From assembly GCA_026983715.1 (NCBI GenBank), contig JALSTM010000077.1, positions 304 through 64,303 on the forward strand: 64,000 nucleotides of DNA, given 5' to 3'. The notes under the pieces were generated by a model. It saw only the letters and a list, made by a program, of their open reading frames with translations, made no database searches and was not told where the DNA came from. Both the position numbers and the translations under genes were made by a program. Positions 38,174 through 63,417 of this stretch are shown here, in pieces (position 1 is the first letter of the stretch; each line of letters begins with the position of its first letter). Origin of the DNA: Desulfobacterales bacterium. GTDB lineage: Bacteria; Desulfobacterota; Syntrophobacteria; B119-G9.

Positions 38174-39271
38174 ATGAGATCTTACTTCAAAGACAAACGT
38201 GTTCTTGTTACAGGAGCTTGCGGAACTGTTGGTCGTGAGCTTGTCCGTCAGTTGTTGGAAAACTACGGCGTCAGCGAACTTGTTGCTCTTGATAATAATG
38301 AAACCGAACTTTTTATTCTTGAAGAACGTCTTTCAAGTTATAGTAATAGTTCTTTCTTTTTAGCCGACATCAGAGACCGTGACAAACTTTGCCGCAAAAT
38401 GCAACACATGCATATAGTCTTTCATACTGCTGCATTTAAACACGTTATCATGTGTGAACGTTCACCTTTCGAAGCGGTACAAACTAATATCCTTGGTGTC
38501 AACAATATCATTTATGCGGCCTTAGAAAACAAAGTTGAACGGGTAATTTTTACAAGCTCAGATAAAGCGGTAAACCCAACAAACGTCATGGGAACTTCCA
38601 AGCTTATGGGTGAGCGTCTTATGACTGCAGCTAACGGTAATCTGCGAGATGGGCGTCAAATATTTGCTTCAACCCGGTTTGGAAATGTGTTGGGTTCCCG
38701 AGGTTCAGTGATACCTATTTTCCGTGAGCAAATTCGACGAGGTGGCCCTGTAACTCTAACGGATCCATCGATGACGCGGTTTATAATGAGCGTGCAAGAG
38801 GCAGTGAGGTTGGTTATTGAATCAACCTTTCTTGCAAGAGGTGGAGAGGTTTTTATCACCAAAATGCCAGTGATGCGAATACAGGACCTTGCTAAGGTCA
38901 TGATAGAGGAATTGGCTCCGGTTTATGGGTATCACCCGGACGAGATAGAAATAAAGCTGATCGGTGTAAAAGCGGGCGAAAAAATGTACGAGGAACTCAT
39001 GAACCATGAAGAAACAAGAAGAGCAGTGGAACTAGAGCGTTACTTCGTGGTTTTACCCGCATTCACAGGTCTTTACCGCAAAATAGATTATTCATATCCT
39101 ACTACTCTTTCTACCCATGTAACAAATCCTTATAATTCCGCAATTGAAAAGCCTCTTTCAGCCGACGAACTTCGACACTTTCTCGTAGAAAACAAACTCT
39201 TAGAGGAAGATTTGTACACTTATCGTCATCCTGCAAGACGTTATTGGCCGAACGAAAAAGAGGGTCAATGA
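38174..39271 (+). CDS. UDP-GlcNAc 4,6-dehydratase, PseB/FlaA1/CapD family (extended SDR)
   Basis: 'VLVTGACGTVGREL', 'DKAVNPTNVMGTSKL', 'RFGNVLGSRGSVIPIF', 'MTRF' match the PseB/FlaA1 pattern. Confidence 0.8.
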   Translation: MRSYFKDKRVLVTGACGTVGRELVRQLLENYGVSELVALDNNETELFILEERLSSYSNSSFFLADIRDRDKLCRKMQHMHIVFHTAAFKHVIMCERSPFEAVQTNILGVNNIIYAALENKVERVIFTSSDKAVNPTNVMGTSKLMGERLMTAANGNLRDGRQIFASTRFGNVLGSRGSVIPIFREQIRRGGPVTLTDPSMTRFIMSVQEAVRLVIESTFLARGGEVFITKMPVMRIQDLAKVMIEELAPVYGYHPDEIEIKLIGVKAGEKMYEELMNHEETRRAVELERYFVVLPAFTGLYRKIDYSYPTTLSTHVTNPYNSAIEKPLSADELRHFLVENKLLEEDLYTYRHPARRYWPNEKEGQ

Positions 39272-39323
39272 AGTATTCTTGAGAGCTACTAGGAGTGGTT
39301 CCCGTCTACTCAGAGGTGGTTTT

Positions 39324-40514
39324 ATGAAAAAACACATACTTATACTTGGCGGTGATGGCTATCTCGGTTGGCCCACTGCCATGTATTTCTCTAACCGAGA
39401 TTATAAAGTAACAGTTGTAGATAACTATTTCCGGAGAAATGCTTGTACGGAACTTGACGTGGGCATGCTTTACCCGGTGCCGACTTTGATTCAGCGTGCC
39501 AAAATCTGGTATGATCTCACAGGAAAAGAGATAAAAGTGGTGATCGGTGACCTTACCGATCCTGAACTTATGCGGGCACTATTTGATGGTACCATAGTTT
39601 ACAATTGGGCTGTCAACCCCGAGTTTACCGGGGTGCCGGAGACTGTCATTCACTATGCCGAACAACCCTCTGCTCCCTATTCCCTTATTAATTACAAGTA
39701 TGCAAATATAACTATCAAAAATAATCTCTTGGTAACTAACAACCTTATGTTTGCTGTTCGCGATTATTCTTCTGATACTCATATCATAAAGCTAGGCACC
39801 ATGGGAGAGTACGGAACGCCAAACATTGACATAGAAGAAGGGTGGATTGAAATTGAGCACAAAGGTCGCAAGGATAGGTTCCTTTTTCCTCGCCAGGCCA
39901 GTTCGCTTTATCATACCACTAAAATAATGGATACAGATCTTCTTTGGTTTGGTGTAAGAATGTGGAATCTGCGTGTTACTGACCTTATGCAAGGTCCGGT
40001 TTACGGAATAGAGACGGAGGAATCAAAACTAGATCCGCGTTTACGCACCCTTTTCAACTATGATGAAATTTTCGGTACAATACTTAATCGTTTCATCGTG
40101 CAGGCTGTGGTGGATTATCCTTTAACTGTCTATGGAAAGGGAGGACAGACTCGTGGTTATCTGAACATCAATGATACGCTACAGTGTGTCCACATGTCAG
40201 AAATAACTCCGGCTCAACCTGGTGAACTTCGCATTTTTAACCAAATTATGGAAACTTTTTCAGTTAATGAATTGGCTGAAAAAGTTTGTAACGTGGGCAG
40301 ATCTCTTGGGTATAATGTCCGGGTCAACCATATCGATAACCCCCGTAAAGAAGCTGAAGATCATTACTATAATCCGACGTATCAAGGTTTAATAGAAATC
40401 GGAGTTAAGCCTCACTATCTCACCAAAAAAGTTTTACTAGAAATGTTCCAAATAGTTGAGCAGTACAAGGAGAACGTTAGAACTGACGTTATTTTTAGAG
40501 GGATTAAGTGGTAA
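39324..40514 (+). CDS. sqdB: UDP-sulfoquinovose synthase homolog (SQD1/SqdB/Agl3 family); start at the ATG with RBS (MKKHILILGGDGY)
   Basis: About 400-aa extended SDR; recalled SQD1 blocks 'GGDGYxGWxTA', 'KLGTMGEYGTPNIDIEEG', 'LTVYGKGGQTRGYL', 'FSVNELA', 'NPRxEAEEHYYN' all present. Confidence 0.75.
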   Translation: MKKHILILGGDGYLGWPTAMYFSNRDYKVTVVDNYFRRNACTELDVGMLYPVPTLIQRAKIWYDLTGKEIKVVIGDLTDPELMRALFDGTIVYNWAVNPEFTGVPETVIHYAEQPSAPYSLINYKYANITIKNNLLVTNNLMFAVRDYSSDTHIIKLGTMGEYGTPNIDIEEGWIEIEHKGRKDRFLFPRQASSLYHTTKIMDTDLLWFGVRMWNLRVTDLMQGPVYGIETEESKLDPRLRTLFNYDEIFGTILNRFIVQAVVDYPLTVYGKGGQTRGYLNINDTLQCVHMSEITPAQPGELRIFNQIMETFSVNELAEKVCNVGRSLGYNVRVNHIDNPRKEAEDHYYNPTYQGLIEIGVKPHYLTKKVLLEMFQIVEQYKENVRTDVIFRGIKW

Positions 40515-40648
40515 TTTTAGCAATTGATAAATGGTTATACTCTGATGAAGGTAGTCCCCGGTACGGGTAAGCAATTTGTAAATCTTGTCATGCCATACTA
40601 ATGAATGGTCTCTTTTGATTGATAGTGATCAACCGGATAGTTGGTTAA

Positions 40649-41950
40649 GTGGACTTTGCGCGTAAAGTTGTTAATACGGCGGGTGCAACATTCATTGTTC
40701 GCATATTGGGTTTGGCTGGATCTGTTGTGCTCGGCCGATTACTTGGACCTGAAGGACTGGGAGTATACAGTATACTCCGGGCTATTCCATCTTTCCTTGT
40801 GGCTTTAACATGTGTGGGACTACCAACTGCCGCAGTCTACTACGTTTCTCGCGAACCACAAAATCGACCTCAGATAACTGCGACACTATTCTTTTATGCT
40901 ATAGTATGTGGAAGTATTATCGCCATAGGGCTCTGGATTTCGAGTCCCCTTTTAAATAAGCTCTATTTCAAAGGAGTCTTGAAAGGCTCTTATTTTGTGC
41001 TTCTTAGTTTCCTTGTGCCTTTTATGCTGTTTGTGAGGCTCGGAAGTGCAATACTGCAGGGACTGTATCGGATTACGGAACGAAATGGTGTGGAGATCCT
41101 CCTCCGTACCGTTCTAATACTAGGTTATTTGGCGCTAGTATGGCTGGTAAAGTGGCACATTTTTGGTGCGTTAACAAGCTTAGTTATAGCTCATTGTTTA
41201 ACTGCATTTTACGTTCTATTTTTTGTTAGGCGTGATATAAAATTTACTGTTAGCCGAAATTTCGCAATAATACGTCGTATGTTCGGATATGCCCTGTCGG
41301 CCTTCCTTGGACAGTTTCTCGAACAGATGGAGGGAAATATCATCTTCTTAATACTCGGAATGTTTATCGAATCGGCAAGTCTTGGCTTATTTGCCGTAGC
41401 AATAGCGCTTGGTGGCTTTGTATTATTTCCAAGTACCGCTATAGCGAGACCAATGCTTCCGAGACTAGCGCGAATGGATGAGAAAGAAGCTGGTCGCGCA
41501 TTTATTCAAGTGATACAGGTCGGTCTGATTCTATCCACCCTCACAGCAGTTGCTGTTGTTGTAATTGCACCATATGCGGTTCCTTTGTTGTATGGTTCAA
41601 AATTCAATGGCGTCACAAGAATATTGATCGTCTTGCTTCCGGGGTTTATAGCAGGGGCAATGTTGAGCTTTGTTAGGGTGTATTTTTTGAGTACCGGGAA
41701 ACCCCTCTGGAGAATGTACATGAGCATGTTTAGAGCTGTGTTACTGTTGGTCTCAATCGTAGTGGGAGGAATCAGTGGGGGAATACTCGGGGCGGCAATT
41801 GGTATGACGGTGGGGTTGATTATCACCTTGTTCGGAGCCTTGTGTTTTATTTTTTGGTATAATCCGATTATTGAGTTTCGAGATATGATAGTTGCCTGGA
41901 CAGCAACTGTAACCTATGTCAAGGCATTTATCGGCAGTAGAAAAAGATGA
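40649..41950 (+). CDS. Polysaccharide biosynthesis flippase (MOP/Wzx family)
   Basis: 433 aa, about 12 TM; N-terminal 'VVNTAGATFIVRILGLAGSVVLGRLLGPEGLGVY' typical of PF01943/Wzx proteins. Confidence 0.7.
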   Translation: MDFARKVVNTAGATFIVRILGLAGSVVLGRLLGPEGLGVYSILRAIPSFLVALTCVGLPTAAVYYVSREPQNRPQITATLFFYAIVCGSIIAIGLWISSPLLNKLYFKGVLKGSYFVLLSFLVPFMLFVRLGSAILQGLYRITERNGVEILLRTVLILGYLALVWLVKWHIFGALTSLVIAHCLTAFYVLFFVRRDIKFTVSRNFAIIRRMFGYALSAFLGQFLEQMEGNIIFLILGMFIESASLGLFAVAIALGGFVLFPSTAIARPMLPRLARMDEKEAGRAFIQVIQVGLILSTLTAVAVVVIAPYAVPLLYGSKFNGVTRILIVLLPGFIAGAMLSFVRVYFLSTGKPLWRMYMSMFRAVLLLVSIVVGGISGGILGAAIGMTVGLIITLFGALCFIFWYNPIIEFRDMIVAWTATVTYVKAFIGSRKR

Positions 41951-42054: not shown

Positions 42055-43113
42055 ATGGAAACGGTGGGAATAGATCCAAGAAGCTACAAACACATCTATG
42101 TTTATGGTACTCCTAGAGGTGCAACTAACCTTTTTTGCGCATTACTTCATAATCATACAAATATAGTTGCTATTAATCATAGATCGACGAGAAAGTATCT
42201 CAATCATTTAATAGAAACGAAACGATCGGCTGAAAGATCTCACTGGTTATTCAATATAAAGGACCTAATTTATGAAAAAGGTGGCCCAGCAAAAGATTTT
42301 ACGTGCATTTCTTATATCCTGTTTGACAAGGTTCACTGGGCATCTGATCGTGCCTTTCAACATGTTGAACTCACCCTGTCACGAGTTCGGTCTGGTCTTG
42401 CTGATGGTATCGTCCTAATCCGCCATCCGCTTCAGGTCCTAAAATCAATGGACAATTTCCACCGACGTTACGGACGTCCCAGATGGGCTCTTACACGCTT
42501 CAATGTACTTCGTTACTTGGTGCAGTATTTTTTACCCCAACTGTGGCTTCTAAAAATTAAGGGAATATATGGAATTGTAGTAGAAGCTTTCGTTAAGAAT
42601 TTGCCTTATAGTTATCGGGATCTATGTGAAAAACTCGGGATACCGTTTGAACTTAGATTTGCTGATTTTCGCTTGACTTTTGAGGATGCGCTAACATGGA
42701 CAGGTGGTAAGTTTGTAATACGGAAATCTGAAGTTGTGGGGGGAGGTTCGTTCTTGACCTCCAAAAGTATAAAAGCACCTGCTCAAGATGTTTATTTTGA
42801 CCCGATAAGCGGTGAGCCCACGTGGGGTTATGGCCAGTTTAATCCTGCGTTACCATTAAATCCTGAAAGACTAATGAGAAGTAATGAGAATTTTGATTTA
42901 CCTACTAGCAGCCTCATTAGGGAAGTATTCTGTAAAGGAATTTCAAAAAAAGATGTGGATTACCTTTTTGAAACAAGATTGTTGGACGTCGAAAGGCTTC
43001 GGGAGTTTGACATGAAGGGAATCGGAAACATTATGTTTCATCTGTTGAATCGATTTCCGCCACCGAAGTGGTTGCAATGGTCCTGGAAATATTTGCGTTC
43101 AAGACCTTATTGA
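42055..43113 (+). CDS. Putative sulfotransferase-fold protein
   Basis: Possible 5'-PSB P-loop 'YGTPRGATNLF' and 3'-PB-like 'LIRHPLQVLKS'; no TM; sits between the flippase and the NeuB-like gene. Confidence 0.4.
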   Translation: METVGIDPRSYKHIYVYGTPRGATNLFCALLHNHTNIVAINHRSTRKYLNHLIETKRSAERSHWLFNIKDLIYEKGGPAKDFTCISYILFDKVHWASDRAFQHVELTLSRVRSGLADGIVLIRHPLQVLKSMDNFHRRYGRPRWALTRFNVLRYLVQYFLPQLWLLKIKGIYGIVVEAFVKNLPYSYRDLCEKLGIPFELRFADFRLTFEDALTWTGGKFVIRKSEVVGGGSFLTSKSIKAPAQDVYFDPISGEPTWGYGQFNPALPLNPERLMRSNENFDLPTSSLIREVFCKGISKKDVDYLFETRLLDVERLREFDMKGIGNIMFHLLNRFPPPKWLQWSWKYLRSRPY

Positions 43114-43190: not shown

Positions 43191-43997
43191 ATGGAGCTTA
43201 TAGCGGAAATAGGTTGGAATCATATGGGGGATTTCCAACTGTTAAAGAAGATGGTAAGAGCAGCGGCTGAAGCGGGTGCTACATATGCTAAGTTTCAAAC
43301 ATGGAGAGTAAAAAATCTCAAGCCTGGTCCATGGGACGAGGATGGACGTAGAGATATTTATAAAGCCGCTGAGCTAACGACGAGTGATTTTTTTAAAGTT
43401 AAGAGAACTTGTGAAGAACATGGTGTTAATTTTCTGACCAGTGTTTTTAATCCGGAAGATTTAGAAGATATGGCCCGTGTATCAGACGAAGCCATAAAGA
43501 TTCCCTCTCCAGAGGTCGCAAATATTCCTCTTTTGGAAGGAGCCGGGAAATTGTTCAAAAAGGTTTACCTTTCAACCGGTGCTAGTACTGAAGAAGAATT
43601 AGACCAAGCGATTGATATACTTAGATCTTTAGACTGCGAGTTAACGTTACTTCATTGTGTTTCTATCTACCCGTGCCCTGATGATAAAGTTAATCTCCCG
43701 AGGATCAAAAGACTAAAAGAGAAACATTCTCGGGTGGGTTTTTCCGATCATACTCCCGATAATTTGAGTGCTCTGTTCGCTATTGCACTGGGAGTTGACT
43801 GCATCGAGAAACACTTCACCATTGATAAAAACCTCCCGGGCAGGGATAATCGTTTCGCCCTGTTGCCTGATGAGTTTAAAGCTATTGCAGATGCTGCAGC
43901 TCGTTATGAGCTCATGTCACATGACTTAGGTCTCGAATTTCAACCTGAAGAAAAAGAACAGCGTGAAATCTATCGGGGTAGATGGAGTGGGAGGTAG
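43191..43997 (+). CDS. NeuB/PseI-family sugar-phosphate (PEP) condensing synthase, TIM-barrel only, lacking the C-terminal SAF domain
   Basis: 'IAEIGWNHMGDFQLLKKMVRAAAEAGATYAKFQTW' N-terminal signature of the N-acetylneuraminate synthase family; 268 aa versus about 340 aa for canonical NeuB. Confidence 0.7.
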   Translation: MELIAEIGWNHMGDFQLLKKMVRAAAEAGATYAKFQTWRVKNLKPGPWDEDGRRDIYKAAELTTSDFFKVKRTCEEHGVNFLTSVFNPEDLEDMARVSDEAIKIPSPEVANIPLLEGAGKLFKKVYLSTGASTEEELDQAIDILRSLDCELTLLHCVSIYPCPDDKVNLPRIKRLKEKHSRVGFSDHTPDNLSALFAIALGVDCIEKHFTIDKNLPGRDNRFALLPDEFKAIADAAARYELMSHDLGLEFQPEEKEQREIYRGRWSGR

Positions 43998-44003
43998 AAC
44001 CAC

Positions 44004-45275
44004 ATGTCGAGAAGAAACCCCAAGGTTACTATAGTTGTGCGCGCCAAAAATGAAGAGTTCTGGATAGGGAAGACGCTTGAACAGATAAACCGCCAGACGT
44101 TCCAGGATTTAGAGGTTGTCCTCGTAGACAGTGGGAGTACGGATAGCACCGTTTCAATCTTTCGCAATTATCGACCAAAAGATTCAGTAGTTGATTTGAA
44201 GGACTTTAAGCCGGGGAAAGCCATCAATGTTGGTATTGAGGCCGGTAGAGGTGAACTGATAGTTGTGCTTTCAGCTCACTGTGTACCGGTGGATGAGAAT
44301 TGGCTTGCTAGCTTCATAAAAGTTATGAAAAACGAAAAAGTGGCAGCTGCATATGGCAGACAACTTCCGTTGCCCTCTTCACACCCGCTGGATAAGCGAG
44401 ATTTACTGAACATTTTTGGTATTGAGGCAAAAATCCAGAAAAAAGACACGTTTTTTCATAACGCAAATAGTATAATTCGCCGTGAGATTTGGGAGCAGGT
44501 ACCCTTTGATCCAGATGTTTCTCACATAGAAGATCGTTTGTGGGCTCAAAAAATTATTTCTATGGGCAAGTACATCGCTTATGAACCAGATGCGGCTGTT
44601 TATCATCACCATGGTATTAATCATTACTCTGACCTCAAGAGAGCAGAAGTCATTTCTGATTTGCTTGTCCGCAGTACCATGATCAATGGCAATGAATATC
44701 CTGAATATTTGAAGCCCGAAAATGAACCAATCCTCTTCTGCTTGTTAGGGCATAACCGAGATGTTCACGATCGGTATGTTCCTATTATTCAACAGGTTTC
44801 AAAGAAATTTCAGAAATCAAAAGTCCTAGTTAATACCCGTGTTCCAGAAATGCTATCGGATTATGATGTTATAGCAGTACCTAGACTAGATAGTGAAGAT
44901 CATCTGACTTTTGTGGACATATTGGCAAAAATGATGAATTGTGCGCATTTAGATGGTTTCTTCCCAAATTGCATCGTGTATCTTAACCCAAAGCTTGAGG
45001 GTTTGAATGTAGATATGGTCCATGATTTGGTAGTTCAGTATTATAGAGGGATGTATGATTCCGTCTTTTTTGCCAGGGAAGAGTATAATAATTTATGGGT
45101 AAAAAAGGGAGATACTTACAAGCAACTTATGGCGGATTACGCTCCTAGAGCAGAAAAAACGCCTATACTTGTGGCTCAATATGGATACGGAACAGCTACG
45201 AAGCCACAGTTTATCAGATCACGTGATTTTGTTGGTCCCAAGGTTGGGATTATCCGTATCAAGGAGGCAAGATGA
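44004..45275 (+). CDS. Family-2 glycosyltransferase with about 200-aa uncharacterised C-terminal extension
   Basis: GT2 N-terminus 'VTIVVRAKNEEFWIGKTLEQINRQTFQDLEVVLVDSGSTDST', DxD-like 'EDR'; C-terminal half has no recognisable motif. Confidence 0.7.
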   Translation: MSRRNPKVTIVVRAKNEEFWIGKTLEQINRQTFQDLEVVLVDSGSTDSTVSIFRNYRPKDSVVDLKDFKPGKAINVGIEAGRGELIVVLSAHCVPVDENWLASFIKVMKNEKVAAAYGRQLPLPSSHPLDKRDLLNIFGIEAKIQKKDTFFHNANSIIRREIWEQVPFDPDVSHIEDRLWAQKIISMGKYIAYEPDAAVYHHHGINHYSDLKRAEVISDLLVRSTMINGNEYPEYLKPENEPILFCLLGHNRDVHDRYVPIIQQVSKKFQKSKVLVNTRVPEMLSDYDVIAVPRLDSEDHLTFVDILAKMMNCAHLDGFFPNCIVYLNPKLEGLNVDMVHDLVVQYYRGMYDSVFFAREEYNNLWVKKGDTYKQLMADYAPRAEKTPILVAQYGYGTATKPQFIRSRDFVGPKVGIIRIKEAR

Positions 45276-46000
45276 TAAACGGAAAAAAAGTTTTGGGTAT
45301 AACATTGGCGCGGGGTGGCTCAAAATCTGTTCCAAAAAAGAACATACGTCCCCTTGCGGGTAAACCGCTCATCGCTTACACTATTGAGGCTGCCTTATCC
45401 TCTTCCTACCTTGACGACTACATCGTGTCCACGGAAGATCAGGAAATTGCAGATATTTGCTCAGATCTTGGAGCACGAGTACCATTCCTGAGACCAGTAG
45501 AACTTGCCTCAGATACAGCTTCCTCGGCGGATGCCCTTTGCCATGCTGTTGATTTCGTTGAGCATGAACGTGGTGAAAAATTTGATTATGTAATTGAACT
45601 TATGGCTACAAACCCTTTCAAAACGTCATTGCAGATTGACAAGGCATTGGAAAAGTTGGATGAGACGGGAGCTGATTCAGTTATAGCGGTGACCCGCGTT
45701 TGGGATTATCATCCGGCGAGAATTAAAAAACTGGATGATAAAGGCCGTTTGGTAAATTTTTGCGTACCAGAACCTTTGGAGGCCCGCAGACAGGATCTAA
45801 CACCGCCAGCATATATCAGATGCGGATCTATTTACGCGTTGCGACGTGATTATTTAATGACTACTAAAACGCGCTACGGGTCAAAAGAATCGTACGCACT
45901 AGTAGTTCCCGAAGAAGAATCAATCAATATTGATAACGAATTTGACTTTGCTCTTGCTGAGATCATTATTGAAAAGAGAAAGAAAATTGCAGGTGGATAA
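45272..46000 (+). CDS. CMP-nonulosonate (acylneuraminate) cytidylyltransferase family protein (NeuA/PseF/LegF-like)
   Basis: 'LGITLARGGSKSVPKKNIRPLAGKPLIAYTI' CTP_transf_3 signature; 4-nt overlap with the upstream GT2. Confidence 0.8.
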   Translation: MINGKKVLGITLARGGSKSVPKKNIRPLAGKPLIAYTIEAALSSSYLDDYIVSTEDQEIADICSDLGARVPFLRPVELASDTASSADALCHAVDFVEHERGEKFDYVIELMATNPFKTSLQIDKALEKLDETGADSVIAVTRVWDYHPARIKKLDDKGRLVNFCVPEPLEARRQDLTPPAYIRCGSIYALRRDYLMTTKTRYGSKESYALVVPEEESINIDNEFDFALAEIIIEKRKKIAGG

Positions 46001-52993: not shown

Positions 52994-53138
52994 AGCTTTG
53001 AAATCGAAATGATATGGTTGGCAGATAACAGAGAAAGGAGGTAACACAATTTGAGTTATCGCAACGATTACTTCAAAAATTGAGAGTTTCAAAAAGACAT
53101 GAATGCGTGGTGGAGAATATTTGGGAGGTGAGTATAAA

Positions 53139-55952: not shown

Positions 55953-57170
55953 ATGAAAGTCTGGATACTTAATCATTACGCTGGTACTCCAGATACTACG
56001 CCGGCGATACGTCCCTACAGTTATGGCAAGGAACTAGTGCGACGAGGGCACGAAGTAACTATATTTGCTTCCAGCTTCAGCCATTATTCATTCGAAGAAG
56101 AACATCTTGCTCCTGGTGAAAGCTGGAAAGCAGAATACTACGATGGAATAAGATTCATCTGGGTAAAAACGCGGCCTTATTTTCGGAATGATTGGCGACG
56201 TTTTGCGAATATGGTTGATTACTCCCTATGGGCTTTACTGATCGGTGTGAAGAGCAGAGAAAAACCGGACGTTATCATAGGCACGTGCGGTCATCTCCTG
56301 GGTGTTCTGGCTGCTTATTTTCTCTCTCTTTTTAAAGGAAGTCGCTTTTTTTATGAGCCAACTGATCTGTGGCCTGAATCCTTGATAGATCTAGGCGCAA
56401 TTTCTGAGAAGGGGTTGGTTGCCAGGGGGCTTCGAATCTTGAGTAAGTTCCTGTGCGTTAAGGCTGAAGGAATCATAACTAATCTTCCCAATTTGGGTGA
56501 TTATGTAGAGGCTTTTGGTGTATCAAGGGACAAAGTGATATATTTACCCAATGGCGTAGACTTTTCCATTTACAAAGGGATAAAACCTTACGACGGGGGA
56601 GCTGGCAAGACTTTTACCATCATGTACATAGGTGGTTTTGCTAAGGCTCATGGGTTGGAGTACACTATCGAAGCCGCTCGCATACTTAAAGATGAAGGGT
56701 TTGACGGAATTCGTTTTGTCTTGGTAGGGGATGGACCAGAGAAAAGTAAGTTAGAAAAGATTTGTAATGAAATGGGACTCGAAAACGTTGAGTTTTGGGG
56801 CTGGGTCCCGAAGGCGAAACTTCCGAAAGTTATGGAGAAAGCTGATGCCTTTTCTTGTAGTTCGCTGGATATGCCTGTGCATAGATTTGGCATGGGTTTT
56901 AATAAGCTCTACGATTATCTGGTTGCCGGTCGTCCAATCATTTATTCCGTTAATTCGAAAAATCGCCCTGTTGATGAGGCTCGGGCAGGAATTTCCATAC
57001 CTGCTGAAAGTGCTGAGTCACTTGCAGTTGCAGTGAAGATGCTTGTTTCTATGACCCCTGAGCAACGCCGCGAAATGGGGAACAACGGCTTTATTTACGT
57101 GAAAAAAAATCACGATTTTGAGATCCTGGGCGGGAAGCTTGAATCAGCCTTACAACAAAGCCTTTCATAA
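55953..57170 (+). CDS. Glycosyltransferase family 4
   Basis: GT-B two-domain pattern; C-terminal 'AFSCSSLDMPVHRFGMGFNKLYDYLVAGRPII'. Confidence 0.8.
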   Translation: MKVWILNHYAGTPDTTPAIRPYSYGKELVRRGHEVTIFASSFSHYSFEEEHLAPGESWKAEYYDGIRFIWVKTRPYFRNDWRRFANMVDYSLWALLIGVKSREKPDVIIGTCGHLLGVLAAYFLSLFKGSRFFYEPTDLWPESLIDLGAISEKGLVARGLRILSKFLCVKAEGIITNLPNLGDYVEAFGVSRDKVIYLPNGVDFSIYKGIKPYDGGAGKTFTIMYIGGFAKAHGLEYTIEAARILKDEGFDGIRFVLVGDGPEKSKLEKICNEMGLENVEFWGWVPKAKLPKVMEKADAFSCSSLDMPVHRFGMGFNKLYDYLVAGRPIIYSVNSKNRPVDEARAGISIPAESAESLAVAVKMLVSMTPEQRREMGNNGFIYVKKNHDFEILGGKLESALQQSLS

Positions 57171-57217: not shown

Positions 57218-57961
57218 GTGCCTGTAGCTTCTGGGAGTAAGGATTCTGGGTTGAGTCTTGGTGAAAAAGCGACATGTAATTTAAAAATGGGGTTGAAGGC
57301 TGGTGGTGCACCCAGAATGTGGAAGCGCATTATCCGGCATTCTATTCCACATATAAAGCAGCTCGTGTTGCCCGGTAGCCAAATTCTTGAAGTTGGTTAT
57401 GGTGATGGATTACTAAGCTGCTATTTGGTCCAAAAACTGGGTTGGTATCTAACTGGTTTTGATATTTCACCCGAAGCCCATGAGACTGCAATCAAGAATG
57501 CCAAACGTTTTGGACTGGAAGACAGAGCTGAATTTCGCTTTTGCAGTCCTGAAGAAACTTGGCAGCATTGCGGTCGATATGATGCGGTGTTCATCAAAAC
57601 AGTACTTTATAGTTCGCCAAATTTGGCCGAATACGGCAGGAGGCTTGACTGGATTATATCAGTGCTGAGACCAGGAGGTGTGCTGATTAATTTTGAAACC
57701 GGCCGAGCTAACTACCTTGTGAATATTTACCGCCGGATAAGGAGGAGGGAATACACAAATTTATGTCTTTATACTAGCGAGGTAGAGGCCTTGTATAATG
57801 CCCGGTTTGACATAGTTTTTAGAAGATACTATGGAGGGTGGAGCCAGTTTGCTGCTCCCATTAAAGGTGTTTACAATTTCATGGTCCTGCTGGAGGAAAG
57901 TTTTCGACCAAGGGGCCCGGATAATTGTTTTGCTGTGAGCATCATTGCCAAGAAACGATAA
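57218..57961 (+). CDS. Class I SAM-dependent methyltransferase (start uncertain; alternative ATGs at 57287 and 57317)
   Basis: Motif I 'ILEVGYGDGLLS', motif II 'AVFIKTVLY'. Confidence 0.65.
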   Translation: MPVASGSKDSGLSLGEKATCNLKMGLKAGGAPRMWKRIIRHSIPHIKQLVLPGSQILEVGYGDGLLSCYLVQKLGWYLTGFDISPEAHETAIKNAKRFGLEDRAEFRFCSPEETWQHCGRYDAVFIKTVLYSSPNLAEYGRRLDWIISVLRPGGVLINFETGRANYLVNIYRRIRRREYTNLCLYTSEVEALYNARFDIVFRRYYGGWSQFAAPIKGVYNFMVLLEESFRPRGPDNCFAVSIIAKKR

Positions 57962-58451
57962 CTTGAAGTATCCAATTGCTGCACAAAGACGTGATATTGT
58001 ATTGGTGTTCTTGGGCTAAAGGAAGAGCTTTTCTATTTGAGGAAACTCTGATTAGTTACTTAGTTTGCCTATGGTCTCTTGCACGTCATACCGGACCCCT
58101 GATCCAGTCAGGGACAGGCTCTGATCCGGGGTCCAATTAAAGAATCCTAGGTTCCGATTCTACGCTTCGCTCCGGCCGGAATAACGATTTCTAAGTTGTG
58201 ATCATCCTACTTGTTTAATTGATTGTACTCCTAAAAATCGGAACTAATCGGAGCTTCCCTGATTGAAGAGATTTAATAACTTTTGGATCTTTGGTGTTGG
58301 GATCCAGGACGGCAGGTGAGGCAGGTCTGGTACTCAAGTAATAGCGGAAGTATTCTAATCAAAACCCCATTGAAGATTTTATCAAAATCCCCAATGACTC
58401 GTTATAATGAGCTGCAAACTCAAGCAATGGTTTTCCGATCCACGAGGAGTT

Positions 58452-59099
58452 ATGAAACGAGGTTTTGACATTGTCTGTGCTGCTACAGGTCTGTTGGTTT
58501 TGAGCCCCTTGCTGATCTTGATTGCCCGGAGGATTAAAAAGGAAGATGGCGGTCCTATTTTTTACAGGGGTGAGAGGGTCGGACGGCATGGTAAGACTTT
58601 CAGAATTTATAAGTTCAGAACTATGGTCGTGGATGCGGAGAAAATAGGTCCGTGTTCTACGTCGGAAGAAGATCCGAGGATTACTAGAATCGGGCATTTT
58701 TTAAGGAAACGTAAGCTTGATGAATTACCACAATTGATAAACGTGCTGTTGGGAGACATGAGTATCGTTGGGCCTAGACCCGAAGTAAAACGTTTTGTAG
58801 ACATGTTTACGGATAGAGAAAAAGCTATTCTATCGGTTAGGCCAGGAATTACTGACTGGGCATCCATATGGAACTGTGATGAGGGTTCAGTGCTGGCAGG
58901 TGCGAAAGATCCCGATAAGGTTTACCTTGAACAAATTCGACCTACAAAAATTGCATTGCAACTAAAATACGTTGAAGAACAAAGTTTTCGCACAGATCTA
59001 AAAATAATATTCTTAACTCTGCTTGCCGTGATTAACCCTGAGATTAAAATGATCCGAGAAATTAGGCAATATATAATCCCTCACAATAACCCGGTCTAA
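58452..59099 (+). CDS. Undecaprenyl-phosphate sugar phosphotransferase (small PglC/WbaP-C-terminal type initiating transferase); start at 'MKRGFDIV'
   Basis: 'KRGFDIVCAATGLLVLSPLLILIA' TM helix, 'DELPQLINVLLGDMSIVGPRPE' catalytic signature of the bacterial sugar transferase family. Confidence 0.85.
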   Translation: MKRGFDIVCAATGLLVLSPLLILIARRIKKEDGGPIFYRGERVGRHGKTFRIYKFRTMVVDAEKIGPCSTSEEDPRITRIGHFLRKRKLDELPQLINVLLGDMSIVGPRPEVKRFVDMFTDREKAILSVRPGITDWASIWNCDEGSVLAGAKDPDKVYLEQIRPTKIALQLKYVEEQSFRTDLKIIFLTLLAVINPEIKMIREIRQYIIPHNNPV

Positions 59100-59117
59100 T
59101 ACGTTTGGAGGATAATA

Positions 59118-60095
59118 GTGGGTTACTCGAGAGAACTACTTGCGAATCTATATCGCACAATGGTTCGCATCAGATTTTGCGAAGAAAGCTTGGTCAAACC
59201 TATTTTGAAAGGTGAAATAATATGTCCGTGTCATTTATATTCTGGGCAAGAGGCTGTTGCGGCCGGCATTTGTGAGTCTTTGAATGAGAAAGATTACGTG
59301 TTTGGTACTCATCGGTCTCATGGACACTTTTTAGCTATGGGTGGAGCTATGAGGGATTTGTTGGCGGAGATTTTTACCCGGGAAACAGGGTGTTCGAGAG
59401 GTAGGGGAGGTTCCATGCACTTGATTGACCCTGGAAAGGGAATTATGGGAGCTGCTCCTATTGTTGCCGGTACAATTTCTCTCGCCATGGGTGCCGCCCT
59501 TGCTTCTAATTTGCGCGGTGAGAAGAGAGTGGCTGTGAGTTTCTTTGGAGATGGGGCAGCAGGTGAAGGAGTGCTCTACGAATGCCTTAATTTTGCGGCT
59601 TTAAAAAAACTACCATTGGTATTTGTCTGCGAAAATAATTTTTATTCTACTCACATGCCGATACAAGAATGCAGAGTTAATGGAGACATTTACAAGATTG
59701 CAGAGCCTTTTTCCGTTAAGTCTTCTAAAGTCGATGGAAATGACGTTTTAAAGGTGTACGAGGCAGGTAAGGAAGCAATTGAGTTTTGTAGAAAAGGGGA
59801 AGGACCTGTGTTTCTTGAATGTAAAACTTATCGCTTTAGAGGCCATGTGGGCCCTGACGACAATATTCAGGGAACGCATACCGACATACGCCCGAGGGAA
59901 GAAGTTGAAAGTTGGTTAAAAAAGGATCCGATAACACGATTTGAGAAATATCTGCTGGAGAATAATCTTCTAAGTGAAAAACTACTTGATGGTATTAAGA
60001 AAGAGATTAGTGACGAAGTTGAAGAGTCCATTGAATTTGCGAAAAACAGTCCGTATCCTGAAGCAAAGGAATTAACCCGATATGTCTATAAATAG
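59118..60095 (+). CDS. TPP-dependent 2-oxoacid dehydrogenase E1 component, alpha subunit (PdhA/AcoA-like)
   Basis: 'GQEAVAAGI', 'THRSHGH', TPP-binding 'GDGAAGEGVLYECLNFA'; 14-nt overlap with the beta subunit. Confidence 0.85.
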   Translation: MGYSRELLANLYRTMVRIRFCEESLVKPILKGEIICPCHLYSGQEAVAAGICESLNEKDYVFGTHRSHGHFLAMGGAMRDLLAEIFTRETGCSRGRGGSMHLIDPGKGIMGAAPIVAGTISLAMGAALASNLRGEKRVAVSFFGDGAAGEGVLYECLNFAALKKLPLVFVCENNFYSTHMPIQECRVNGDIYKIAEPFSVKSSKVDGNDVLKVYEAGKEAIEFCRKGEGPVFLECKTYRFRGHVGPDDNIQGTHTDIRPREEVESWLKKDPITRFEKYLLENNLLSEKLLDGIKKEISDEVEESIEFAKNSPYPEAKELTRYVYK

Positions 60096-61077
60096 AAAAC
60101 TACAATACAGTCTGGCAATCAATGAAGCATTGCATCAAATGATGGCAGTTAATGATTCGGTCTTTTTAATGGGACAGGGTGTAAAGAGTCCCTGGTACGT
60201 TGGAAACACTGCAAGAGGACTGCTGGAGAAATTTGGAAATGGCCGAGTGATAGACACCCCAGTGTCTGAGAATTCCATAACTGGTGCCGGGGTGGGGGCA
60301 GCAATTGCTGGGATGAGACCGATTATTGTGCATCCTAGAATGGATTTTATGCTCTACGCCATGGATCCCATAATAAATGAAGCAGCTAACTGGTATTATA
60401 TGAATGGTGGCAGAGTATCCGTACCTGTAGTTATATGGGGTATAATAAATAGGGGTGGAGAACAAGCAGCACAGCATTCCCAAGCCCTTCACTCGATATT
60501 TTCACACGTTCCGGGCCTCAAGGTTGTTATGCCTTCGACTCCTTACGACGCAAAAGGGCTAATGATAGCAGCTATAGAGGATGATAATCCTGTTGTATTT
60601 ATAGATGATAGATGGCTCTACGGAATCGAAGATTTTGTTCCTGAAGAAATTTACATTGTGGAGATCGGAAAGGGAATTATTCGGAAAGAAGGGTCTGATA
60701 TCACGCTTGTTTCCATATCGTTCATGGCCCATCAGGCTCTTGAAGCTGCTAACAGACTAGCAGAAGAGAACATACATGTTGAAGTTATTGATCTTCGCTC
60801 CGCAAAACCAATAGATACCGAAATAATTATTGATTCATTGAAAAAAACAGGTTTTCTAGTTGTGCTGGATGGGGGCTGGAAAACCTGTGGTTTCTCATCA
60901 GAAGTGGCCGCCATCGTCGCAGAAAAAGGATACCAATATCTCAGGGGGCCAATAAGACGTATAACTCTTCCGGATTGTCCTGCTCCTGCAAGCTCGGTGC
61001 TTGAAAAAGCATATTACCCGAATTCTGATAATATTGTCGCTAACATAAAATCCTATCTAGAAAATTTCCATCGATGA
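60082..61077 (+). CDS. TPP-dependent 2-oxoacid dehydrogenase E1 component, beta subunit (transketolase-like Pyr and C-terminal domains)
   Basis: 'VFLMGQGV', 'DTPVSENSITGAGVGAAIAGMRPI', 'KVVMPSTPYDAKGLM'. Confidence 0.85.
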   Translation: MSINRKLQYSLAINEALHQMMAVNDSVFLMGQGVKSPWYVGNTARGLLEKFGNGRVIDTPVSENSITGAGVGAAIAGMRPIIVHPRMDFMLYAMDPIINEAANWYYMNGGRVSVPVVIWGIINRGGEQAAQHSQALHSIFSHVPGLKVVMPSTPYDAKGLMIAAIEDDNPVVFIDDRWLYGIEDFVPEEIYIVEIGKGIIRKEGSDITLVSISFMAHQALEAANRLAEENIHVEVIDLRSAKPIDTEIIIDSLKKTGFLVVLDGGWKTCGFSSEVAAIVAEKGYQYLRGPIRRITLPDCPAPASSVLEKAYYPNSDNIVANIKSYLENFHR

Positions 61078-61099
61078 AAGAGACGGAGGTTAAATCAAT

Positions 61100-62227
61100 A
61101 TGGGATACAAGGTTCGATTTGTTGACCCTGCCAGGAACTACCGAATGATCAAGGAAGAAATAGACAAAGCTTACTTCGAAGTAATGAGCAAAGGAGATTT
61201 GATTGACCGGCAGCATTTAAGAGATTTTGAGGCTAATCTGGCGGCCTTCGTAGGAACAAAATACGCCGTGGGGCTAAATAGTGGATATGATGCTCTGCAC
61301 ATGTCACTAAGAGCGGCGGGAGTCGGTCTGGGAGATGAGGTTATCGTGCCTTCTCATACCTTTGTTGCGACAGCATCTGCAGTAGTGAATGTTGGAGCAA
61401 AGCCGGTTCTTGTTGATGTGGGAAAGGACTTCAATATTGATTGCAGCAAGATAGAGGAAGCTATTACAGAGCAGACAAAAGCAATTATTCCGGTACACCT
61501 GAATGGCTACATGGCAGATATGGAAAGAATTATGGAACTTGCTAACAAGTATAATCTTGTGGTGATAGAAGACGCTTGCCAGAGTCTGGGAGCAAGCATG
61601 TTGGATGAAAAAGCAGAGGGTAAGAAAAAAAAGGCAGGTTCGTGGGGGCTTACCGGATGCTGGAGTTTCTATCCATTCAAAATGCTTGGTGGTTACGGTG
61701 ATGGAGGAGCTATTACTACTAACGATCCAGATGTGGCTCTGTTCGCGAGACGCATGAGGTTTAACGGTGAAGATCGTGAAACTGGGGAGTACCACGGGCA
61801 TGGATTTACCTGCCTGCTAGATAACCTTCAAGCTGCGTTTCTTGACGTGAAACTGAGATATTTACCTGAATGGATAAAGAGAAGGCAAGAAATTGCCAAG
61901 CGTTACAGAAGGGGGCTTAAAGACTTAGAAGACCTTATGCTACCTCACTATGATGATCCGAGAAGGGATCATGTTTACCAGAATTATGTGGTTAGATCAA
62001 AGCAGGGGGATGAATTTTCTAATTATCTCAAGGCAAATGGTGTAGAAGTATTGATTCAATTCAGGAAGCCCTATTACAAGCACAAAGCTTTACAGTTGGA
62101 AGACAGGGGATTCCCTGAAACTGAGGCGCTAAGTAAAGAGGTATGTTCTTTGCCGATGAATGTGGAAATAACTGATGAAGAAGTCGATTATGTTATTTCT
62201 GTTGTGCGCAGTTTCTATTCAAAATAA
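61100..62227 (+). CDS. DegT/DnrJ/EryC1/StrS-family PLP enzyme (sugar aminotransferase or dehydratase)
   Basis: 'VPSHTFVATASAVV', 'EDACQSLGA', 'SFYPFKMLGGYGDGGA' with lysine. Confidence 0.8.
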   Translation: MGYKVRFVDPARNYRMIKEEIDKAYFEVMSKGDLIDRQHLRDFEANLAAFVGTKYAVGLNSGYDALHMSLRAAGVGLGDEVIVPSHTFVATASAVVNVGAKPVLVDVGKDFNIDCSKIEEAITEQTKAIIPVHLNGYMADMERIMELANKYNLVVIEDACQSLGASMLDEKAEGKKKKAGSWGLTGCWSFYPFKMLGGYGDGGAITTNDPDVALFARRMRFNGEDRETGEYHGHGFTCLLDNLQAAFLDVKLRYLPEWIKRRQEIAKRYRRGLKDLEDLMLPHYDDPRRDHVYQNYVVRSKQGDEFSNYLKANGVEVLIQFRKPYYKHKALQLEDRGFPETEALSKEVCSLPMNVEITDEEVDYVISVVRSFYSK

Positions 62228-62259
62228 AAACATAGAGCTTTCTACAAGAAAGGGATGCA

Positions 62260-63417
62260 ATGGCTCTCAACTTAAGTTCCCGACACGAATTGGTGAGGCA
62301 ATCCGAAATACGTAATATGTCTGTTGAATGTGATAGAATGGGGGGGATTAATTTATCACAAGGAATAAGTGATTTGGCTGTACCCAAGTGTGTGATGATG
62401 GCAGCCCAAAAGGCAATAGAAGGAGGATATAATTCTTATACCCATTTCAGTGGATTGGAGGAGCTTCGAAAAGCTATTGCAGAAAAGCAAAAAAAATATA
62501 CCGGGATGGATATCGATCCTGAAAACGAAATTGTCGTTAGTGCAGGCTCGACAGGAGCGTTTTACTGTGCATGCCTTGCTCTTTTAAATCCAGGAGATGA
62601 AGTAATCTTGTTTGAGCCATATTACGGCTATCACAAGACAACTTTGGTTGCAGCAGGGGCGGTACCGGTTTATGTTCGTCTTTCTCCTCCTGAATGGACC
62701 TTTACAGATGAATCGTTGGAATCAGTTGTTTCAGGAAAAACAAGAGGAATACTCATCAATACGCCTGCTAATCCTTCAGGAAAGGTGTTCAGTAAAGAGG
62801 AACTTGATCGGATTGCTGAATTTGCTTCCAATTATGATCTTTTTGTATTCACAGATGAAATCTATGAACACTTTCTCTATGACGGGAAGGAACATATCGC
62901 TCCGGCGACCATTCCCGGGATGAGGGAAAGGACGATTACCATATCGGGTTTATCAAAGACTTTTAGCATCACTGGTTGGAGAATCGGATATTCTATTTGT
63001 GATCCCAAATGGTCCAGAAGTATTGGTTACTTTAATGACCTTATATACGTATGTGCCCCTTCGCCACTGCAGATGGGCGTAGCTAAAGGCTTGATAGACT
63101 TGGATAAAGACTTTTACCAACATATCTCCCAACAATTTCAGAGAAAACGAGATATGGTTTGTAATTCTTTGAGAGAAGCAAATCTTAACCCCTTTGTTCC
63201 CGAAGGGGCATATTATATTTTGGCAGATATTTCAAGAATACCGGGAAAAAGCAGCAATGAACGTTGCTTATATATTTTGCGTGAGATAGGAGTTGCGAGC
63301 GTGCCGGGTAGTGCCTTTTACCACGACAAATCGGGGGAGAAGTTAGCAAGATTTTGTTTTGCAAAAGAAGATTACGTTTTGAGCGAAGCTTGCACGAGAT
63401 TAAAGAGTTTGAAATAA
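62260..63417 (+). CDS. Class I/II (aspartate-aminotransferase-fold) PLP aminotransferase
   Basis: 'INLSQGISDL', 'LINTPANPSGKVFS', 'SGLSKTFSITGWRIGY' PLP-lysine region. Confidence 0.8.
   Translation: MALNLSSRHELVRQSEIRNMSVECDRMGGINLSQGISDLAVPKCVMMAAQKAIEGGYNSYTHFSGLEELRKAIAEKQKKYTGMDIDPENEIVVSAGSTGAFYCACLALLNPGDEVILFEPYYGYHKTTLVAAGAVPVYVRLSPPEWTFTDESLESVVSGKTRGILINTPANPSGKVFSKEELDRIAEFASNYDLFVFTDEIYEHFLYDGKEHIAPATIPGMRERTITISGLSKTFSITGWRIGYSICDPKWSRSIGYFNDLIYVCAPSPLQMGVAKGLIDLDKDFYQHISQQFQRKRDMVCNSLREANLNPFVPEGAYYILADISRIPGKSSNERCLYILREIGVASVPGSAFYHDKSGEKLARFCFAKEDYVLSEACTRLKSLK

Follow-up and report, generated by a model that had tools for sequence, protein, structure and literature searches.

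A conserved Pen-like dehydratase and SQD1-like gene pair in a probable mosaic envelope-glycan locus of an uncultured diderm bacterium

Introduction

Sulfoquinovose is regarded as a phototroph membrane product, and a 2026 review of bacterial sulfoquinovose cycling covers the SqdB-SqdX route only and does not use the word "polysaccharide." Here, an SQD1-like gene was found in a probable sulfate reducer, in what is probably a locus for a surface polysaccharide, at positions 38174 to 63417 of a 64-kb stretch of metagenomic DNA (contig JALSTM010000077.1; this whole stretch is called the window below), with its genes numbered g1 to g23 in their order. The closest described relatives of the SQD1-like enzyme, g2, are SQD1 (Arabidopsis), SqdB (cyanobacteria, Rhodobacter, and Sinorhizobium), and Agl3 (Sulfolobus), with which it shares the GxxGxxG, TMG, and Tyr-His-x-x-Lys motifs. 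SQD1 and Agl3 proceed via UDP-4-keto-glucose-5,6-ene and, without sulfite, release UDP-glucose-5,6-ene. As with Agl3, the sugar made by g2 would enter a glycan rather than a lipid. Unlike all three enzymes, however, the g2 type is nearly always encoded directly after a Pen-like dehydratase gene instead of beside SqdX, SqdD, or Agl16, and Arg101, which is invariant in the canonical enzymes, is replaced by Pro across its clade. In contrast to the canonical SQD1/SqdB setting, the clade occurs in Wzx-type polysaccharide loci of nonphototrophs.

The dehydratase encoded in front of it, g1, is a soluble PF02719 enzyme, and its described relatives are the 5,6-dehydratases Pen (the partner of Pal in Bacillus thuringiensis) and TunA and the 4,6-dehydratases PseB, PglF, and CapE/FnlA. 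Pen is a UDP-N-acetylglucosamine (UDP-GlcNAc) 5,6-dehydratase with the product UDP-GlcNAc-5,6-ene (PMC8987622), and such a 5,6-ene is the same type of intermediate that SQD1 sulfonates. Unlike Pen, g1 has Met in place of the catalytic Tyr and an SQD1-like partner instead of Pal, and it is not followed by Pam/Pdi/Phy-type genes for pseudaminic acid.

Overall organization of the glycan locus

Gene families were assigned by Pfam and NCBIfam profile searches, with the NCBIfam equivalog cutoffs applied. Positions 38174 to 63417 probably represent a mosaic, polyprenol-phosphate-linked, Wzx-type envelope-glycan locus (for an O-antigen, an exopolysaccharide, or a related oligosaccharide) of an uncultured diderm, with four modules as proposed here (module 1, g1-g2; module 2, g4-g9; module 3, g14-g16; and module 4, g18-g23). 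An assembly set consisting of g19, g3, g12, g6/g13/g17, g11, and g10 would be interleaved with these four portable sugar-precursor modules, which recur separately and in other combinations on other metagenomic contigs. The results below directly support the family-level gene identities and the modular structure, as well as the linkage statistics, the Arg-to-Pro replacement in the g2 clade, and the fold of the sulfotransferase. The overall design of the locus is ordinary and its content is unusual, with three of the modules being conserved and uncharacterized; the Pen-like/SQD1(R101P) pair of module 1, which is abundant, is the lead of greatest interest.

A conserved dehydratase and SQD1-like gene pair

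The two genes of module 1 are as follows.

38174..39271, + strand: g1, PF02719 UDP-N-acetylhexosamine (UDP-HexNAc) dehydratase, closest to Pen (PF02719, E 2e-97)
39324..40514, + strand: g2, SQD1/SqdB-like extended short-chain dehydrogenase/reductase (SDR) of a distinct clade with Arg101->Pro (1QRR, SQD1, E 6e-118)

The database gene call starts g2 with the ATG at 39324, and a longer open reading frame (ORF) runs from 39279 (TTG). The protein is similar to Arabidopsis SQD1 over the full length (47% identity) and conserves GTMGEYG and SSLYHTTK, which correspond to the Thr145, Tyr182, His183, and Lys186 set, while its score against NF041015, the UDP-sulfoquinovose synthase equivalog, was 400 bits with a cutoff of 575. 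A metagenome scan returned 590 relatives of g2, and the best 80 of these 590, at 59 to 82% identity, were retained. All 80 retained clade members read HYAEQPSAPYS, with Pro at position 101, whereas Arg occupies this position in SQD1 (HFGEQRSAPYS), S. meliloti SqdB (HFAEQRAAPYS), and a Pseudonocardia homologue (HFAEQRSAPYS). Agl3 reads AEQRSAP, as taken from the sequence of its R101A primer, and the R101A mutant of Agl3 is inactive (PMC4388408). Among 138 columns that are invariant in three canonical enzymes, g2 keeps 133 and the remaining five differ consistently in the clade, with R101P being the only nonconservative change; in addition, g2 carries a 13-residue insertion relative to canonical SQD1-type enzymes. 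Thus, the sulfonated glycan of the original prediction is plausible by way of a noncanonical pair, while canonical sulfoquinovose synthesis is not established, because g2 falls under the equivalog cutoff and has Pro in place of an Arg that is essential in Agl3.

For g1, the top PDB match was Pen (6BWC, 280 bits), followed by FnlA (208), CapE (204), PglF (196), and FlaA1/PseB (191), and the protein stayed under the NCBIfam equivalog cutoffs for both PseB (270 versus 408 bits) and FnlA. The original prediction had named it PseB-like; the present results instead describe a conserved partner of g2 that is closest to Pen. A place for g1 in a pseudaminic acid pathway is not evident, with PseB, PseC, PseI, and PseF all under their cutoffs and no PseG. 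No Pal-like gene was found in the window.

The linkage of the two genes was counted in the 55 loci, from the best 80 of the 590 g2 relatives, that offered at least 1150 nt of upstream sequence. Directly ahead of the g2 orthologue, 42 of these 55 loci have a g1 orthologue (50 to 75% identity); another 9 have one elsewhere in the locus, and 4 have none. The g1 orthologue also stood directly before the g2 orthologue in all four independent contexts inspected. The genes around the pair vary, comprising family 4 glycosyltransferases (GT4s), a carbamoyltransferase, GH130s, phosphoglycosyltransferases (PGTs), and WbpB/E/D-like trios, and the pair is therefore considered a conserved unit. By comparison, sqdB of S. 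meliloti is followed by a glycosyltransferase gene and has no g1-like neighbor.

Judged by these relationships, g2 is predicted to be a sulfite-adding sugar-nucleotide enzyme. In the proposed scheme, g1 would supply a dehydrated (5,6-ene or 4-keto) UDP-sugar, the dehydration step having been handed over to g1 in this clade, and g2 would oxidize C4, add sulfite to C6 by Michael addition, and re-reduce the sugar, following the SQD1 cycle. This would yield a 6-deoxy-6-sulfo sugar nucleotide, which may be an N-acetyl form rather than plain UDP-sulfoquinovose. More tentatively, g1 and g2 might form an unrecognized two-enzyme route from UDP-HexNAc-5,6-ene and sulfite to UDP-2-acetamido-2,6-dideoxy-6-sulfo-hexose (N-acetyl-sulfoquinovosamine), in the same locus in which PGT-coupled E1 alpha/beta genes (see below) would lead to an aminated, two-carbon-branched initiating sugar. 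Neither a g1-g2-type pair nor a 6-sulfo-HexNAc was found described in the open-access literature searched, including that on sulfoquinovose in bacterial polysaccharides.

Several observations weigh against this reading. The active-site motif of g1, SSDK...Mx3K, is that of PglF/CapE-type 4,6-dehydratases and not the Yx3K of Pen, and it is present in 62 of 67 g1-clade sequences; g1 might simply be a UDP-GlcNAc 4,6-dehydratase of the ordinary kind, supplying the DegT and PGT genes. The 47% identity of g2 to SQD1 compares with 44% between SQD1 and the proven SqdB of S. meliloti, and, with Thr, Tyr, His, and Lys kept, plain UDP-sulfoquinovose may still be the product of g2. The role ascribed to Arg101 comes from a single alanine mutant of an archaeal enzyme, Agl3 (PMC4388408). 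No genes for sulfite supply or for the supply of 3'-phosphoadenosine-5'-phosphosulfate (PAPS) were present in the window, and the substrates and products of all locus enzymes are inferred.

It is possible, though we would give it only limited credence, that g2 is a canonical UDP-sulfoquinovose synthase and g1 an independent PseB/PglF-type 4,6-dehydratase feeding a pseudaminic- or bacillosamine-type pathway (g22/g16, g14, g5, g7, and g19), with their adjacency reflecting the co-use of two sugars. The SQD1 match, the intact catalytic residues, and the PglF/CapE-like motif of g1 are all consistent with this explanation, as are the JGI labels of g2 homologues (UDP-sulfoquinovose synthase) and the small PGT and DegT genes that often lie less than 10 kb from the pair (e.g., in loci L011, L053, L067, and L047). 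However, in L009 and L010 the pair stands where there is no nearby aminotransferase, PGT, or NeuB gene, the linkage of g1 and g2 stays very tight across 59 to 85% identity, and the Arg that is essential in Agl3 is uniformly lost in the clade. Moreover, PseG and NeuC are absent, all Pse models remained under cutoff, and loci L002 and L003 carry the NeuB cassette but neither g1 nor g2.

If the Pen-like/SQD1(R101P) pair does make a sulfonated sugar, anoxic sediments would hold a nonphototrophic source of C-S sulfosugars, and sulfite from dissimilatory sulfate reduction would pass straight into the glycans of the envelope. The g2 clade is abundant in metagenomes, the 590 relatives having come from one scan, and many homologues of at least 80% identity are labeled Desulfobacterales. 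Should the N-acetyl route hold, then, given how abundant the pair is in Desulfobacterota and in sediment metagenomes, envelope polysaccharides of sulfate reducers would constitute an unrecognized C-S sulfosugar pool outside the sulfoquinovosyl diacylglycerol of phototrophs. A sulfonating pair would also make R101P, together with the partner enzyme, a natural experiment on SQD1 acid/base chemistry.

A third SDR of ~327 amino acids, absent from the window, is the immediate neighbor of the pair, before or after it, in 23 of the 80 loci (L007, L011, L014, L016, L018, L022, and 17 others). It was considered as a candidate Pal and rejected, its best matches being the GalE/WbpP/WbgU 4-epimerases (4ZRM, 160 bits; Pal, 134 bits), and it may epimerize the product of the g1-g2 pair. 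In L007 (10132-11907; NCBI metagenome-assembled genome [MAG] GCA_054035815.1), a carbamoyltransferase gene (Carbam_trans_N/C) directly follows the pair, and a family 2 glycosyltransferase (GT2) gene and a WecA-type GT4-family transferase gene come next.

Genes for glycan assembly

Classical Wzx/Wzy O-antigen and exopolysaccharide loci (e.g., enterobacterial rfb/wb*) resemble the present locus in their co-directional genes, lower GC content at third codon positions (GC3), and mosaic makeup and in combining a PGT, Wzx, a Wzy-like protein, glycosyltransferases, and sugar-precursor genes. Unlike them, the window holds no Wzz, Wza, or Wzc, and its precursor modules are unusual and largely uncharacterized. 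The assembly genes, apart from g6 (listed with module 2), are as follows.

40649..41950, + strand: g3, Wzx-type MOP flippase (PF13440, PF01943; 12 hydrophobic segments)
48022..49089, + strand: g10, membrane acyltransferase-3 (PF01757; 8 hydrophobic segments)
49244..50326, + strand: g11, GT38-like protein with a polysialyltransferase-type C-terminal region (PF07388, 27.1 bits versus cutoff 23.3)
50446..51807, + strand: g12, Wzy/WaaL/PglL-type polytopic membrane protein (PF04932, weak; 9 hydrophobic segments)
51797..52993, + strand: g13, GT4 glycosyltransferase (PF00534, PF13692)
55953..57170, + strand: g17, GT4 glycosyltransferase, WcaI-like (Pfam and NCBIfam)
58407..59099 (alternative start 58452), + strand: g19, small monotopic PglC-type PGT (PF02397, E 3e-62)

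These assignments agree with the original prediction of an initiating undecaprenyl-phosphate-sugar phosphotransferase (g19, which also matches TIGR03025 at 236 bits), a Wzx flippase (g3), and three GT4/GT2 transferases (a GT2 at 44004 and GT4s at 51797 and 55953). For the predicted Wzy-like polymerase, the candidate is g12, a Wzy/WaaL-like protein with nine segments, whose PF04932 (Wzy_C) score of 24.8 bits lies under the cutoff of 31.7. The acyltransferase g10 is probably an O-acetyltransferase and looks like a separate insertion, since it has the lowest GC content of the locus (36.2%) and is missing from the otherwise syntenic L002/L003 cassette. For g11, a candidate CMP-ulosonate transferase, the PDB gave no sequence match, and its N-terminal part had no Pfam match.

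Two further points count against a polymerized envelope polysaccharide: g12 lies under the PF04932 cutoff, in a family that covers WaaL, PglL, and PilO besides Wzy, and no Wzz, Wza, Wzb, or Wzc gene was found among the ORFs of the window, although such genes may sit elsewhere in the genome. It is unlikely, but not negligibly so, that the product of the locus is a short lipid-linked oligosaccharide destined for protein O-glycosylation (of pilin, flagellin, or an S-layer protein) or for lipid A-core ligation, with g12 being a PglL/PilO-type O-oligosaccharyltransferase or a WaaL. Besides the breadth of the g12 family and the lack of chain-length regulator and Wza/Wzc export genes in the window, the type IV pilus genes of the same window would suit this explanation, and small PglC-type PGTs are typical of protein glycosylation systems. 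However, the locus encodes several glycosyltransferases and a Wzx, its 25-kb size is typical of O-antigen and exopolysaccharide loci, and no target protein gene is adjacent.

A module coupling a phosphoglycosyltransferase to E1 alpha/beta genes

Split E1 alpha/beta enzymes that depend on thiamine diphosphate (ThDP) and act without E2/E3 inside a sugar pathway are known from avilamycin (AviB1/AviB2) and paulomycin (Pau11/Pau12) biosynthesis, where they are proposed to supply a C-4 acetyl branch from pyruvate that, in the latter case, is reduced by the aldo-keto reductase Pau7 (PMC4753412). C-4 hydroxyethyl-branched sugars occur in Gram-negative O-antigens (PMC4753412), and YerE/YerF of yersiniose synthesis follow a comparable branched-sugar logic with a YerE from a different ThDP family. 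The end of the locus resembles the AviB and Pau systems at the family level and, besides the PGT gene g19 listed above, comprises the following genes.

57218..57961, + strand: g18, class-I S-adenosylmethionine-dependent methyltransferase, first gene of the module (PF13649)
59118..60095, + strand: g20, ThDP-dependent E1 alpha-like subunit (PF00676; TIGR03182, 343 bits versus cutoff 394)
60082..61077, + strand: g21, E1 beta-like subunit with transketolase pyrimidine-binding and C-terminal domains (PF02779, PF02780)
61100..62227, + strand: g22, DegT-family sugar aminotransferase (PF01041, E 2e-99)
62260..63417, + strand: g23, class-I/II aminotransferase (PF00155)

A Desulfobaccales MAG contig (L093) carries genes for a methyltransferase, a PGT, E1 alpha, E1 beta, a DegT protein, and a class-I aminotransferase in the same order at 59 to 80% identity (g18, 59%; g19, 68%; g22, 80%; and g23, 69%). 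Orthologues of g20 at ~70% identity adjoin PGT genes in L093, L094, and L095, and those of g21 are 72 to 73% identical in L093 and L094; the order in L094 is PGT, aldo-keto reductase, E1 alpha, and E1 beta. In addition, a natural fusion of 546 amino acids (P0224; L095 2206-3846) joins a small PGT (PF02397) to an E1 alpha domain that is 72% identical to g20, with no E1-beta gene following it on the short contig L095. No E2 or E3 genes were found in the window. The terminal class-I aminotransferase of the original prediction held up, and because L093 keeps it directly after the DegT gene, g23 belongs to the locus rather than to housekeeping metabolism.

By analogy with the antibiotic pathways, module 4 probably builds a two-carbon-branched sugar. 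The g20/g21 pair would add a two-carbon (acetyl) unit from pyruvate to a keto-sugar nucleotide, this branch would then be aminated (g22 and g23) and methylated (g18), or reduced instead in L094, and g19 would load the branched sugar onto undecaprenyl phosphate, which would make it the initiating sugar or one made close to it. The aldo-keto reductase gene of L094 adjoins the E1 pair as Pau7 does in paulomycin. In contrast to the AviB and Pau systems, the pair here lies in an envelope-glycan locus, adjoins the initiating PGT (and is fused to a PGT elsewhere), and is followed by two aminotransferases in place of a reductase, which suggests an aminated branch. The open-access literature searched gave no description of such a module of E1 components in O-antigen clusters. 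It is very improbable that g20/g21 are an ordinary catabolic pyruvate/acetoin dehydrogenase E1 and g23 a housekeeping aminotransferase, all chance neighbors of a locus ending at g19: although g21 exceeds the NCBIfam cutoff for the pyruvate dehydrogenase E1-beta subfamily (339 versus 321 bits) and g23 resembles general class-I aminotransferases, there are no adjacent E2/E3 genes, the entire gene order is kept in L093, the adjacency of PGT and E1 genes returns in L094 and as a fusion, and g20 and g21 overlap by 14 nt and begin 18 nt downstream of g19.

A sulfotransferase/NeuB cassette

The NeuB/NeuA, PseI/PseF, LegI/LegF, and Kdn pathways share with module 2 and g11 a NeuB-family synthase, a CMP-transferase, and a GT38-like transferase. 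Unlike those pathways, module 2 has a synthase without the SAF domain, misses all of the equivalog cutoffs, lacks a hydrolyzing epimerase and PseG, and carries a sulfotransferase, a GT2-like protein, an O-methyltransferase, and a 2-hydroxyacid dehydrogenase. Its six genes are as follows.

42055..43113, + strand: g4, divergent PAPS-type sulfotransferase of a very small family (Pfam matches of relatives, AlphaFold2 [AF2], and Foldseek)
43191..43997, + strand: g5, short NeuB-family phosphoenolpyruvate-aldose condensing enzyme without an SAF domain (PF03102, E 4e-59)
44004..45275, + strand: g6, GT2-fold protein with a C-terminal region of ~200 amino acids (PF00535)
45272..46000, + strand: g7, CMP-ulosonic acid cytidylyltransferase, PseF/NeuA-like (PF02348; TIGR03584 PseF, 162 bits versus cutoff 206)
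46008..47030, + strand: g8, NanM-like putative sugar O-methyltransferase (TIGR04371, 67 bits versus cutoff 44)
47069..48025, + strand: g9, D-2-hydroxyacid dehydrogenase resembling phosphoglycerate dehydrogenase, last gene of the cassette (PF02826, PF00389)

The order of g4 to g9 is kept at 60 to 80% identity on two JGI contigs (L002 and L003) with no SQD1 gene nearby, and the six genes thus form a portable cassette. Homologues of g4 are scarce: a search of 5.8e9 proteins gave 4, and one of 1.84e9 cluster representatives gave 40. The protein itself reached only E 0.023 against PF13469 and had no useful match in a sequence search of the PDB; among its relatives, 19 of 32 match Sulfotransfer_3 (PF13469, best E 3.8e-19) and 5 match Sulfotransfer_1. 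The motifs PRGxTN (R21/G23/N25) and IVLxRxPxxxxxS (R123/S131), corresponding to the 5'-phosphosulfate-binding (5'-PSB) and 3'-phosphate-binding (3'-PB) elements, are conserved. The AF2 model built from a 32-sequence alignment had a predicted local distance difference test (pLDDT) score of 90.8, compared with 40 from a 4-sequence alignment, and its 50 best Foldseek matches from the PDB were all PAPS sulfotransferases (including TPST1/2, the CurM ST domain, HS 3-OST, and NDST). On these several lines of evidence, g4 is a divergent sulfotransferase, and the possible sulfation of the glycan in the original prediction gains support.

The synthase g5 scored 211 bits for NeuB and 168 bits for PseI (PseI cutoff, 340), both under cutoff, and its best PDB match was the short sialic acid synthase 6NCS. 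No Pfam match was obtained for the C-terminal half of g6, which is syntenic at 70% identity in L002 and L003. A hydrolyzing epimerase (NeuC), PseG, and a GNAT-type PseH were not found with the NCBIfam/Pfam profiles. The predicted nonulosonate-like character thus stands at the family level of NeuB and the CMP-transferase and does not extend to pseudaminic, legionaminic, or neuraminic acid in particular, the cutoffs of the Neu and Pse equivalogs having been missed. From family assignments, we concluded that the cassette would make a CMP-activated ulosonic acid, methylated and/or sulfated. The synthase g5 and the cytidylyltransferase g7 would yield a CMP-activated 2-keto-3-deoxy-ulosonic acid, which would be tailored by the sulfotransferase, the O-methyltransferase, and the 2-hydroxyacid dehydrogenase and transferred probably by g11. 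As portable tailoring units, this cassette and the PGT-linked E1 alpha/beta module, including its fusion form, would widen the known monosaccharide repertoire.

A putative amino-sugar trio

In Pseudomonas aeruginosa, WbpB/WbpE/WbpD (WlbA/C/B in Bordetella) belong to the pathway of 2,3-diacetamido sugars, and the same three enzyme families form one overlapping block here.

53103..53768, + strand: g14, left-handed beta-helix N-acetyltransferase, WbpD/PglD-like (PF00132; NeuD/PglB/VioB subfamily)
53755..54774, + strand: g15, GFO/IDH/MocA oxidoreductase, WbpB-type sugar 3-dehydrogenase (PF01408; weak UDP-GlcNAc 3-dehydrogenase match)
54771..55916, + strand: g16, DegT-family sugar aminotransferase, WbpE/QdtB-like (PF01041, E 4e-124)

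The PDB matches of g16 were the 3-aminotransferases QdtB, DesV, and WbpE (216 to 229 bits), and its PseC score was 311 bits with a cutoff of 424, while g15 is only distantly related to solved members of the GFO/IDH/MocA family. Orthologues of the trio adjoin the g1-g2 pair in L011 and L028 (g14, 63 to 78% identity). Following the WbpB/E/D logic, C3 oxidation, transamination, and N-acetylation would give a 3-acetamido sugar. Unlike the Wbp pathway, the locus has no WbpA-type 6-dehydrogenase or WbpI epimerase, and the substrate is therefore not evidently a uronic acid. The amination, acetylation, and methylation foreseen for the glycan all have corresponding genes in the locus.

Base composition and borders of the locus

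The ORF listing gave 23 consecutive + strand ORFs in an uninterrupted run from 38174 to 63417, so that the original prediction was right about the co-directional run and one gene short with its count of 22. The overlaps it described as many indeed measure 4 to 14 nt but were found at only 6 of the 22 junctions (g6/g7, 4 nt; g9/g10, 4 nt; g12/g13, 11 nt; g14/g15, 14 nt; g15/g16, 4 nt; and g20/g21, 14 nt). The other junctions are gaps of 6 to 154 nt, with a single gap of 445 nt (57962-58406) ahead of the PGT gene g19. Bulk GC content was 42.0% in the locus versus 43.5% in 1-38173 and 44.4% in 11-26 kb, a small contrast (Mann-Whitney P = 0.02, 1-kb windows), while mean GC3 was 38.7% in the 23 locus genes versus 45.2% in the 26 other ORFs of the window (Mann-Whitney P = 2e-7). 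The compositional distinctness of the locus is thus real and modest: the AT-richer character is carried by GC3, and a bulk difference of 1.5 points makes "visibly" an overstatement. Searches for Rfam RNAs, tRNAs, and repeats found no tRNA, Rfam RNA, or flanking repeats marking the locus edges, and the promoter and terminator scans of the locus were at chance level.

The left edge of the locus is marked by the following feature.

37798..38173, + strand: shared upstream leader or promoter region and left locus edge (assembly/strain breakpoint)

Another assembly, from what is essentially the same strain (ENA ERZ27262647, contig k141_199454, L004), has a different left flank, unrelated to the window upstream of 37797; this alternative flank (L004 1-700) is the 3' end of a gene for a hydrophobic protein of 239 amino acids. 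In a third assembly, the Logan contig L005 begins exactly at 37798. The position 37797/37798 is therefore an assembly, strain-variable, or repeat-induced junction at the left locus edge. The exchanged-locus character that had been proposed fits this alternative junction as well as the lower GC3 and the mosaic modules, which together fall short of proof. Upstream of g1, the region 36205-38173 consists of an ArsR/SmtB-like helix-turn-helix gene of low GC content (38.9%) followed by ~1.4 kb without a + strand ORF of at least 80 amino acids, and it may have a regulatory role or be a remnant. Shortly beyond the downstream end of the locus, a direct repeat of 31 nt (97% identity) occurs at 63481-63511 and 63970-64000 with a spacing of 489 nt, overlapping a - strand ORF of 130 amino acids without a Pfam match, which suggests tandem paralogous small genes running off the window.

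Host and neighboring genes

The window comes from a metagenomic contig with exact copies, up to 69.7 kb long, in ENA, Logan, JGI, and NCBI assemblies. Profile searches of the rest of the window identified LptF/LptG, MlaC, PilB/PilC/PilS, FabD, RadA, and an Nfr-type system, and the presence of LptF/LptG, MlaC, and an NfrA-like outer membrane protein, among others, indicates that the host is a diderm with lipopolysaccharide. The closest homologues of g2 and g20 are labeled Desulfobacterales, Desulfobacteraceae, Desulfobaccales, or Deltaproteobacteria MAG, on account of which the uncultured host is probably a sulfate reducer of the Desulfobacterota. When GTDB species representatives were scanned with the flanking WecB/NfrC, no close relatives came up, the sole match being chlamydial and 32% identical.

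Directly upstream of the locus, on the - strand at 27353-35673, lies a complete Nfr-type exopolysaccharide system controlled by cyclic di-GMP (c-di-GMP). It consists of a DUF4434 protein, an NfrA-like tetratricopeptide repeat outer membrane protein of 1263 amino acids with an NfrA_C domain, an NfrB-like GT2 with c-di-GMP-binding MshEN domains (NF008411, 663 bits; PRK15489, 632 bits, over cutoff), and a WecB/NfrC UDP-GlcNAc 2-epimerase. Adjoining this system, a - strand ORF of 277 amino acids (26234-27067) weakly resembles the flocculation-associated PEP-CTERM protein PepA (E 4e-5, under cutoff). A type IV pilus block at 13130-17801 (- strand) encodes a PilS-like histidine kinase, PilC (T2SSF), and a PilB ATPase with MshEN, which makes PilB the second c-di-GMP-binding MshEN protein in the window beside NfrB.

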